Assembly (NCBI GenBank): GCA_024276825.1
Contig: JAJRWI010000071.1
Location: 1 to 54,734, forward strand
Source: an archaeon
GTDB taxonomy: Archaea; Asgardarchaeota; Thorarchaeia; Thorarchaeales; Thorarchaeaceae
Length of the DNA: 54,734 nt
Direction: 5' to 3'
Part shown: in pieces, positions 46,239 to 49,229 of the stretch
Numbering within the stretch: the stretch's first letter is position 1
Layout: each line of letters begins with the position of its first letter
The notes under the pieces: model-generated
Seen by the model: only the letters and a program-made list of their open reading frames with translations
The model's database searches: none
What the model was told of the DNA's origin: nothing
Translations under genes and position numbers: made by a program

Positions 46239-46407
46239 AGCTAGGACAGAGTTGGAGACCAATCAAAAGAACATCTAATGATATACAGCAAGATTGAGAG
46301 GGGTCTAAATAGTCTCATCAGAGATCAAAGTCTGAAACGTGCCCAGTGCTGTTCCTGGGCGGACGGGACTGAGATGTCCAAGAATGTCCAATTTACAATG
46401 AACGGTT
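46219..46407 (-). mobile_element. ~185 bp non-autonomous insertion element, copy 2 (inverted)
   Basis: Near-identical reverse complement of 29914-30101; bounded by GGTT (AACC on the minus strand) at both ends. Confidence 0.88.
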
Positions 46408-46627
46408 CAGTGAAATAGAAATCAGCCATGATAAATGAGAACGAATTCATCGCCATGCCAAACATGAACACAGCCCATGCAAGTCTGAAATCCACAATTT
46501 TTCTTATAGAGCTTCGAAACCATTGACCGATGAAGAGTGCGACAAACAGGAGTGAATACAAAATCACTCCAGAATCCAGGATCAGGATTATATCACTAGT
46601 CAGACTTGGCGTGTCTAGAATTGGCAT
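46404..46627 (-). pseudogene. 5' fragment (~75 codons) of the split 7TM-longin gene
   Basis: Two TM helices ending ...ADFYFTEP at the element core; continues in frame with TSILIWTK at 30103. Confidence 0.82.
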
Positions 46628-46954
46628 GGATCCAAATTACTATTCATTCAGTTTGGACATATTGACGGTAGATTTTGCAGCATAGGAGTTCTATTTGAAT
46701 TAACGAACTCATTGAATCATTCATGTGGTTATCAAATAGAATTTAATAGCCATTACTGCTAATTGTTGTTGTTCTTTGATAATATGTTGATCAACACATA
46801 ACCCTGAATTCTACAATTTTGCGTCAAGAAAATCCAAATCGAGTATCCCGAGAATTTGTGATTAGCCCAAAGGGGAATAAATTACGAAGAGAAGTGTCAA
46901 TTGATATGAGATAGAACTGATATGTTGCATTAATAATCACTCAGATGATTGACA

Positions 46955-47158
46955 GAGAATAAGGTGGGTAAGGGGACCTGCAGACAACGCAGTGCGGCCG
47001 CGCCATTCGGCCTGCCAAGGATCTCTTGGTCAGCCCACCTATTGTTTTTCGCACCGCGTTCCAGATGTTGATTTTTCAAGACATCTGCAAGACGGCCCAC
47101 CGCACGCCAAAGTGGACTGTCGATCTGCATGGTCGAAAGTTCCCTTACCCTTGTTTTC
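46955..47158. ncRNA. unidentified highly structured GC-rich element (putative ncRNA)
   Basis: Nested stems GGGTAAGGG/CCCTTACCC, GACC-TGCAGA/TCTGCA-T-GGTC, AACGCAGTGCG/CGCACCGCGTT, plus four hairpins, within AT-rich intergenic DNA. Confidence 0.55.
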
Positions 47159-47549
47159 GTTGTTTTGGTTATGCTCTTTTTCTATAAGACCTTTGGTAAT
47201 GAAAGCAGTTATTTGTCTTATATCTTACTATGAAATATGATAACATGTTAGATTGATTACTTTCATATAAAAAAACTATTGGTCTGTATATCTTAAAAAT
47301 GTCCAGTATGATTCAGGTGGCCATGATATCAGAATAGATTAATTGTTCAAAAAGACAGATTTGGGTTATTAAGACTTAAATCCCTTTAATGAGATAATAT
47401 TCTGCAGTTCGATCCAAGCAGACTACCTAGCAAGACCGGAAATGAGGGCGGTTCAGAGTAACCAAAAGATCCCATCAGTCGAAGGTCCAGAATCATATCA
47501 TTGGGGATAGTGAAGAGGTTGAGCCTGAAAAGACGGGGTACAGGAAATA

Positions 47550-49229
47550 ATGTATGAGTTATTTGTATATTCAGCTTTGTTAATCTATGTTGCTTCATTA
47601 TATATAGGACTTCAAAAGAAACCAAGAAGGGATTCAATATTATTTCTCGCCTTGCTATTTGGCATATTATTAGCAACAAGTCAGATCATATGGTATTTGC
47701 AAATTAATCATTCAGGTTCATTCATTCTGAATAATATTGTTCATATTGTTGAATATCCAATCACTACATTCGAAATCTTGCTTGGTTTGAGAATGTTTCA
47801 TTACAGTGCGATTTCAAGAGTTAAGGGCACTAACAGGTATGCCCATCCATTCTTTATAGTAGTCACTATGATTTCAATTGGAATTGTCGAGATTCTAGAT
47901 TTCATCTCATCAGATTATTTTGTTATCGCCAATGCCGCGATTTTGCTCTCGCTAATACTATTCAGTTTTGTTGGATATTATGCAGTGTTGTTTAGAAATA
48001 ATCCATATGCAAAAGCACCAGTTGACCACGAAAGGGGAATTCAAATTATTATCACGGGATTTGTGATTCTGATTATTGGGATGATCATAATTGAGGGGGT
48101 GTTCTTGAATTTTGAACTTGGGATAATAATGGAATTATTCTCTATCATGATTATATTCTTTGGAGGAATTATTTCAGCCACACCGACATTCATAGATGTC
48201 TTTTCAAAACTGAAAATGGGAACTATAATCGTAGATATCAGTGGAGAAATAAAGCTAGTGAAGTTCATTGATACAAGGCATGAGAGTTTCCATGATGACA
48301 AGTCGGTCAAAACAGCCACTGCCATAATTGCAAAAATAGCAGATGAGATAGATCATGTGTTTGAAACTGGTCAAGACTATGAGATACCGTTTATTGAACT
48401 TGAACAGTTGGATTCGGACAGATTATACAAGATTGATATATTACCGCATCAATCTGGGCTGTCAAATAGGCCAATCTCAATCCTAATTATTATTTCAGAT
48501 GTCACTTCATCAGTGACTGAGATGGAAACTGAGAAACTAGCAGACCTCTTAGAAAAATATATTGAAGAAAAGGATTATGCAAACCTATTCTTGGATGTAA
48601 TTAGTCATGATATGGGGAACCTCCTGCAGGGACTAATTTTGTCATTTGAGATATTTCATGAGATAAAGGACTTTAGTGTTATCACAGAGTTGATGGCGAG
48701 CTTGGAAAAGAAAGTAAGGCGTTCGAAGAGTCTGCTAAATGAGATAAAGATGATTGCAAATGTAAAAACAAAGCCCAAGGAGTTCAAGAGAATTAATGTG
48801 GCATATGCAATCGTTGCAGCAGCCAAAGAGGTCCAAGATAGTATTTGTGATGCTGAAATCTTTCTGGACATCAAGCAAATCGGACCACAAACTAAAGTCT
48901 TGGCAGATGAGTTAATAAAACTTGGATTTATTGGGATAATCCAATTTTGTGCCAATGTCCACACAGACACGAGTTATTTAGAAGTCAGCATCCATTCTCT
49001 GGAAAATGAGAAGAAGGTAGCAATTGAAATTAAAGACACAAACTTGAGAATTCCAATATCAAGTATGGACCTTTTGTTTAATGAGGACGCAAGAATTCAA
49101 TTATCCATTGAAAGTATAGGACTGATACTCGCAAAACGGGTCTTTCGTAGATTTAATGGTGAAATTACAATTCAGGCTGAAGAAGACGGCACTAATTTCT
49201 TGATAAAACTGCCAATGGCACATTTGTAA
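47550..49229 (+). CDS. membrane-bound histidine-kinase-like protein with degenerate ATPase domain
   Basis: About 7 TM segments, PAS-like region, H-box SHDMGNLLQ; the N/G1/G2 boxes are degenerate (IIQFCAN, DTNLRIP, ESIGL). Confidence 0.7.
   Translation: MYELFVYSALLIYVASLYIGLQKKPRRDSILFLALLFGILLATSQIIWYLQINHSGSFILNNIVHIVEYPITTFEILLGLRMFHYSAISRVKGTNRYAHPFFIVVTMISIGIVEILDFISSDYFVIANAAILLSLILFSFVGYYAVLFRNNPYAKAPVDHERGIQIIITGFVILIIGMIIIEGVFLNFELGIIMELFSIMIIFFGGIISATPTFIDVFSKLKMGTIIVDISGEIKLVKFIDTRHESFHDDKSVKTATAIIAKIADEIDHVFETGQDYEIPFIELEQLDSDRLYKIDILPHQSGLSNRPISILIIISDVTSSVTEMETEKLADLLEKYIEEKDYANLFLDVISHDMGNLLQGLILSFEIFHEIKDFSVITELMASLEKKVRRSKSLLNEIKMIANVKTKPKEFKRINVAYAIVAAAKEVQDSICDAEIFLDIKQIGPQTKVLADELIKLGFIGIIQFCANVHTDTSYLEVSIHSLENEKKVAIEIKDTNLRIPISSMDLLFNEDARIQLSIESIGLILAKRVFRRFNGEITIQAEEDGTNFLIKLPMAHL

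Follow-up and report, generated by a model that had tools for sequence, protein, structure and literature searches.

A new single-copy, four-armed RNA family of Thorarchaeota with a probable tRNA-type intron

What is a GC-rich, highly foldable element doing in the AT-rich DNA between two divergent genes of a Thorarchaeota genome? Eukaryotes have no closer known relatives than the Asgard archaea, whose non-coding RNA content is, to our knowledge, almost unexplored. We examined the element within its window, the whole stretch of 54,734 nt that was analysed (contig JAJRWI010000071.1). The first-pass annotation had described a GC-rich island there and left several options for it: a novel non-coding RNA, a cis-regulator, or a structured repeat element. 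The island is borne out, with a GC content of 0.53-0.56 across positions 46950-47149 and of 0.22-0.38 in the flanks. Against shuffled sequences, the folding z-scores of the element are -4.5 (plus strand) and -5.2 (minus strand); for neither strand did any of 200 shuffles fold as well. The flanking genes had been described as divergent membrane sensors; they are divergent, but sensor-like features could be shown for the right-hand gene only. The locus is arranged as follows.

46325-46627, minus strand: broken membrane-protein gene; the ORF codes for the N-terminal 100 residues
46961-47153, minus strand: whole RNA gene, an end-to-end match to our full-length family model R2 (109.8 bits, E 2.4e-22), 193 nt with its insert and ~164 nt without it
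47550-49229, plus strand: multi-pass histidine-kinase-like gene, the right flank

No known RNA accounts for the element. A search of the whole window against Rfam 15 at gathering score gave no match, and with E up to 10 allowed, the element region returned only a chance match to PrrF. The same permissive search (E up to 10) of insert-free homologues taken from four genomes turned up nothing but a chance miRNA match, and ARAGORN found 0 tRNA or tmRNA genes in the element. The first-pass annotation had recognised no tRNA, SRP, RNase P, ribozyme or known riboswitch consensus and had named a known-family match as grounds for refutation; the lack of such a match speaks in its favour. RNase P RNA and SRP RNA of the same genome were found on other contigs (C24, 169 bits, and C36, 120 bits, respectively), and therefore the element is neither of these; it shares no similarity with them beyond 7-9-mers. 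We also rejected three further candidates. For a Y RNA or YrlA, no TROVE (Ro60) protein match was found in the genome, and control genomes were positive. For a heavily interrupted tRNA gene, there were no remnants of a T-loop or D-loop, and the supposedly extra sequence is the most conserved part. For a tmRNA-like tag frame in the large loop, there was no conserved stop codon or reading frame. Elsewhere in the genome, allowing introns in ARAGORN gave a possibly spurious 'tRNA-Stop(tta)' call of 248 nt (contig C18, 20192-20439).

By BLAST, G002, another species of the genus, has a 72%-identical copy, and G014, from another genus, a shorter one. We built a core covariance model of 80 positions from the two best-conserved hairpins, and it found exactly one strong match in 68 of the 86 genomes of one Thorarchaeota family. 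The carriers cover 16 of 16 genera and include 21 of 23 high-quality genomes; one of the 68 has an additional weak partial match. The full-length family model R2 (158 positions, 42 pairs; 39 full-length copies aligned) gave a match in 24 of 26 sampled genomes of the family and at 76 of the 76 loci that were checked (49 + 27, a few from the same genomes). Among 125 genomes from 26 other Asgard families it matched in none, and weak core-model matches in three other Asgard families failed the full model. A two-motif pattern scan extended the search to the genomes of 185,579 species and to viral contigs. Its bacterial matches (mostly in GC-rich genomes) and its two viral-contig matches all fail the model, and those that pass come only from Thorarchaeota-type MAGs, the named ones being Candidatus Thorarchaeota archaeon, including SMTZ1-45. 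Within the genomes searched, the RNA appears to be confined to one Thorarchaeota family. The 2.9-Mb genome that holds the window (G000) has a single copy, and the 68 carriers have one full match apiece. Because the element is single copy, the repeat or insertion-sequence reading is refuted. The family has no model in Rfam 15, and we found no description of it in the literature searched. We conclude that this is a new single-copy four-armed RNA family of Thorarchaeota that is absent from the searched RNA catalogues.

Among the family genomes that lack a detectable copy are three notable ones: G001, a single-contig genome of the same genus, and G011 and G012, which are 93% and 97% complete. A search of G001 for a diverged copy gave only a chance match inside a coding region. 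Because of these three genomes, the RNA may be dispensable, although it is near-universal in the family. Two loci show altered copies. About 40 nt downstream of the RNA in G007 (L047:1680-1702) lies a partial copy of the large loop, AAAACAUUAGGAGGUGGCGCGGC, followed by a T-rich tract of its own; it looks like the remnant of a local duplication. At the G084 locus (L033:1450-1600) the whole 3' half is absent, and ...CAAAUCAUUA is followed by the downstream flank at the short repeat CATTA, reflecting either a real deletion or an assembly artefact.

It had been stated that wobble pairs do not fix the strand of the RNA. The homologues overturn this. In the G002 copy, several positions that read as C-A mismatches on the plus strand are G-U pairs on the minus strand, and across 48 distinct homologue sequences there are 207 G-U pairs and 24 A-C pairs. 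These counts rule out a plus-strand RNA and place the gene on the window's minus strand.

Read on this strand, the gene has a predicted start and a predicted end. A BRE/TATA-like motif is centred ~35 nt before the first paired G in nearly all of the 39 aligned homologues. From the usual archaeal spacing between TATA box and start, transcription is predicted to begin near 47160, giving a leader of ~10 nt (~47151-47160). At the other end, the sequence GCCCACC is invariant and is followed by U or C in 39 of 39 homologues, never by A. Directly 3' of the last helix comes a pyrimidine- or T-rich tract, whose first 16 nt average ~77% pyrimidine across the 39 homologues and which is probably an archaeal terminator.

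47182-47194, minus strand: predicted promoter, BRE-like AAAGG and TATA-like CTTATAG, AAAGGUCUUAUAG; same distance in nearly all homologues
46950-46965, minus strand: tail, the invariant single-stranded ACC after P1, then the tract UUAUUCUCUGUC; the end-to-end model match stops at 46961

The secondary structure is strongly supported by covariation. In the family alignment, 94.4% of pair cells form pairs, a share that drops to 34-42% once partners are shifted by 1-3 columns. Compensatory changes on both sides occur in 33 of 42 pairs, and 0 of 500 shuffles reached the observed scores, so covariation, proposed earlier as a check, is plentiful. The closing stems and arms that had been claimed were all found where they had been placed, and P1, P2, P3, P4 and P5 covary among homologues. 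(MAFFT with RNAalifold on three sequences had given poor structures.) From 5' to 3', the window copy is built of these parts.

47142-47150, minus strand: P1 5' strand GGGUAAGGG, pairing with 46966-74
47135-47141, minus strand: 5' bulge AACUUUC, 7 nt
47123-47134, minus strand: P1b (GACC), a bulged A and the P2 5' strand (UGCAGAU), with partners at 46975-85
47091-47121, minus strand: P3 hairpin (GACGGCCCAC/GTGGACTGTC), a strongly covarying stem
47101-47111, minus strand: P3 loop UUUGGCGUGCG, nearly invariant
47062-47087, minus strand: P4 hairpin (CAGATGT/ACATCTG) with an A-rich loop; the family consensus loop is CAAAAUA
47050-47060, minus strand: P5 5' strand AACGCGGUGCG, with an invariant junction GG just before it
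47035-47049, minus strand: large loop L5, first part, with UAGGUGG at its end
47006-47034, minus strand: 29-nt insert GCUGACCAAGAGAUCCUUGGCAGGCCGAA, a probable tRNA-type (bulge-helix-bulge) intron
46997-47005, minus strand: second part of large loop L5, UGGCGCGGC, beginning with the invariant heptamer UGGCGCG
46966-46996, minus strand: 3' strands of P5 (46986-96), P2 (46979-85), P1b (46975-78) and P1 (46966-74)

P1 begins with an invariant GGG, and its fourth base is C in 36 of 39 homologues and U in the window copy. The P3 stem illustrates the covariation, with one example pair occurring as CG 12, UA 12, GC 11 and AU 3 times. P2, P3, P4 and P5 join in a tight four-way junction with linkers of ~1, 3, 1 and 0 nt, and the large P5 loop reads CAAAA..AUUAGGUGGUGGCGCGGCAA in most homologues. 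Two inner hairpins of the earlier description, CCAAG/CTTGG and GGCCG/CGGCC, do pair but fall outside the conserved RNA: the first lies inside the 29-nt insert and the second straddles its 3' edge. The complementarity noted between AGGTGGG and CCCACCT is also real. The core of this match, GGUGG/CCACC, does not vary within the family; it would join GGUGG in the large loop to a CCACC running from the end of P1 into the tail. Because both sides are invariant, covariation neither supports nor rejects this contact. An analysis of mutual information among unpaired columns revealed an extension of P1 and no pseudoknot. Overall, a single-copy, covarying RNA with its own predicted promoter and no Rfam match supports the non-coding RNA option.

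The window copy is unusually long. Typical copies measure 152-169 nt, the window copy 193 nt, the G002 copy 223 nt and that of G088, from another genus, 184 nt; all of the additional sequence in these three lies within the large loop. It is made up of four inserts of 29-30 nt, which are found in 3 of 68 carrier genomes (three species, two genera) at two adjacent GG^UGG sites. The window insert is 29 nt long and follows UAGGUGG, the G088 insert is 30 nt long and follows UUAGG, and the two 30-nt inserts of G002 follow UUAGG and the next UGG, respectively. In all three genomes, removing each insert leaves UAGGUGGUGGCGCGGC exactly, as in insert-free homologues.

The inserts also share a fold. In all four, a central helix forms between four exon bases and four bases near the 3' end of the insert, with 3 of 4 pairs and an outer A-G mismatch. 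At the first site AUUA faces UAAG and at the second AGGU faces GCCG, so the intron strand varies with the site. In every insert, 3-nt bulges occur in matching register on both sides, and a hairpin with a loop of 5 nt lies inside; the window insert has GG|G and AA|U as bulges and CUG-A-CCAAG / CUUGG-CAG as hairpin. The inner helices have 3 to 10 pairs, except in G088 (1 pair and a mismatch), and the outer helix is weak, with 1-3 pairs. Shuffled inserts or arbitrary 30-nt placements had these features in 0.5-1.4% of cases. A permissive bulge-helix-bulge scan was too noisy, and the motif became clear once G088 gave the exact insertion site.

We read the window insert as a probable tRNA-type intron, because its removal restores the loop exactly and because it shares a relaxed bulge-helix-bulge frame with the three 30-nt inserts of two other species. 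We do not put it more firmly because relaxed motifs of this kind are frequent by chance when placement is loose (2026 preprint, 10.64898/2026.10.13.758758). A less likely but serious alternative is that the insert is an extra hairpin retained in the mature RNA of the genus, an expansion of a tolerant loop. The chance frequency of relaxed motifs would fit this, as would the three-pair central helix, the weak outer helix and a strict scan for four-pair bulge-helix-bulge motifs, which found none at the insert edges. Simple loop expansion does not sit well with four separate inserts that each restore an otherwise invariant 16-nt loop exactly, with the two that stand in tandem at the repeated GG^UGG sites of G002, or with the homologous insert in another genus, 16 of whose 17 species are without an insert or a detected copy. 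The change of the intron-side strand of the central helix with the site also argues against it.

The probable intron resembles archaeal bulge-helix-bulge introns of tRNA, rRNA and cbf5 mRNA, in so far as the preprint relates the account of Marck and Grosjean (2003, cited in 10.64898/2026.10.13.758758). Shared are the size (29-30 nt), a short central helix with a 3-nt bulge on each of its two strands, a hairpin inside, a conserved host sequence that is restored precisely, and a patchy occurrence among close relatives. Unlike the introns of that account, the insert sits in a host that is neither tRNA nor rRNA, its splicing is predicted, and its central helix has 3 pairs and an A-G mismatch, not 4 pairs.

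What might such an RNA do? The reading that we favour, and consider probable, is that of a free-standing minus-strand gene for a stable, trans-acting RNA that would be matured, at least in part, by tRNA-type enzymes and would bind one conserved partner through its loops. Its own BRE/TATA promoter would drive transcription, and the T-rich tract after the terminal helix would end the transcript. The precursor in this genome would carry the 29-nt insert in its largest loop, which the splicing endonuclease and a ligase would excise, joining UAGGUGG to UGGCGCGG and giving a mature RNA of ~156-164 nt. Other tRNA-maturation enzymes might conceivably trim the RNA, as the GGGC/GCCC-ACC end and the ~10-nt leader faintly hint. 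As a stable RNA, the mature form would most likely act in trans. Two nearly invariant G-rich loops (UUUGGCGUGCGG and UAGGUGGUGGCGCGGC) would serve, together with the tight junction, as its working surfaces, and the single conserved partner that they bind could about equally well be a protein or a C-rich RNA.

It is also possible, although unlikely, that the RNA is a base-pairing regulatory sRNA, whose two G-rich loops act as seeds for C-rich stretches of mRNA leaders and so control translation. In its favour, the invariant motifs of the two exposed loops, UGGCGUGCGG and UGGCGCGGC, are nearly identical. The large loop also contains a Shine-Dalgarno-like AGGUGGU that could pair with 7 bases of the genome's 16S 3' end, GGAUCACCUCCU, a complementarity that we take as only a resemblance. 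The target searches speak against such a regulator. The genome contains few exact loop complements, and these fall within coding regions or next to a 33-codon ORF; with wobble allowed, complementary sites are no commoner than for shuffled loops. When 86 genomes were scanned for a perfect 14-nt complement of the large loop, only the gene itself was found in each of the 10 genomes listed. Moreover, the elaborate invariant junction exceeds what a carrier of seeds needs. Among known archaeal RNAs, the sRNA154-type sRNAs of Methanosarcina mazei are likewise stable small RNAs with a repeated motif on two loops; unlike them, the RNA described here has a closed four-way junction and not a chain of hairpins, has no sequence relation to them, and gave an empty target search.

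Features shared with tRNAs raise the question of a tRNA mimic, whose acceptor-like end would be recognised by RNase P, the CCA-adding enzyme or a synthetase, making it a decoy or an amino-acid carrier. The terminal helix starts with GGGC and ends with GCCC-A-CC, as in several tRNAs of the same genome, tRNA-Arg(tcg) among them (GGGCGCG...CGCGCCC-A-CCA). The four-way junction is cloverleaf-like, with four covarying helices and linkers of 0-3 bases, as in tRNAs and tRNA-like RNAs (RF00005; tmRNA and bacterial YrlA domains). Promoter, short leader and T-tract follow the layout of a tRNA gene, and the small inserts are of the tRNA-intron, bulge-helix-bulge-like type. The likeness to a cloverleaf is one of topology only. 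The terminal helix is 9-11 bp long, compared with the 7-bp tRNA stem, and is followed by a second helix, and the arms are about twice as long as those of tRNA. We compared the loops with the tRNA consensus for the T-loop, D-loop and 7-nt anticodon loop, and none (UUUGGCGUGCG, CAAAAUA and the 26-nt loop with UAGGUGGUGGCGCGGC) fits. There is no match to tRNA or tmRNA models, no tag reading frame and no Ro (TROVE) protein. The genome's tRNA genes encode CCA, but here the invariant ACC is followed by U or C and CCA is never encoded. (By ARAGORN, nearly all tRNA genes of the genome encode the 3' CCA.) On balance, we regard a tRNA mimic as improbable. Just as doubtful is a fuller form of the idea, in which leader removal, splicing and CCA completion would yield an oversized tRNA-shaped RNA that is charged for non-ribosomal use or titrates a tRNA-binding factor as a decoy. 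If true, an RNA of such a pathway would be the first of its type in archaea.

The gene neighbourhood bears on whether the RNA acts in cis. Among 41 loci from other genera, a gene for a ~190-residue secreted protein lies downstream on the same strand in ~27, and further downstream on that strand an FtsX-type permease gene is found in 20 of 41. The secreted protein has the motif QDTLRPEISAWG and no Pfam family; the conserved pair of genes is seen at loci L009, L013-L017, L020-L023, L039, L040, L043, L044, L046 and L048. The two genes each have their own CTAATTAAGG-like TATA box, and the conserved downstream gene has a BRE/TATA ~30-40 nt before its start codon. This synteny is missing in the genus of the present genome and in several others. 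That the element is a cis-acting leader or riboswitch of a neighbouring gene is therefore very improbable: the two same-strand genes speak for it, but the RNA is ended by a T-rich tract, the downstream gene has its own BRE/TATA, the RNA sequence remains conserved in this genome and in several genera that lack the synteny, and in the window the next minus-strand ORF starts 330 nt away and its gene is broken. The cis-regulator proposed in the first-pass annotation is likewise unlikely, because a predicted promoter and a T-rich end belong to the RNA itself and the adjacent genes vary from genus to genus. Because synteny is absent in several genera in which the RNA remains conserved, we argue for action in trans.

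The trans-acting RNA that we favour finds its closest company among orphan structured non-coding RNAs such as OLE, raiA and ROOL (Weinberg et al. 2010, PMC2864571). Like these, it is lineage-restricted, single-copy and strongly covarying, has invariant loops and junctions, and is partially linked to membrane-protein genes. Unlike OLE and ROOL, it is archaeal (Asgard) and much smaller, is unrelated to them in sequence and structure, and has probable introns.

The window copy adds to the family a probable intron, a two-site pattern of inserts and negative tests for mRNA targets. The inserts show small introns settling at repeated sites of one loop and, if they are spliced, the archaeal tRNA-splicing endonuclease would gain a new substrate class in this RNA, in addition to tRNA, rRNA and cbf5 mRNA. 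The gene layout tells the exact splice junction to seek in metatranscriptomes, and the covariance model provides annotators with a marker gene for the family. Finally, a single-copy RNA with invariant loops that has been retained across 16 genera must have a cellular job in these Thorarchaeota.
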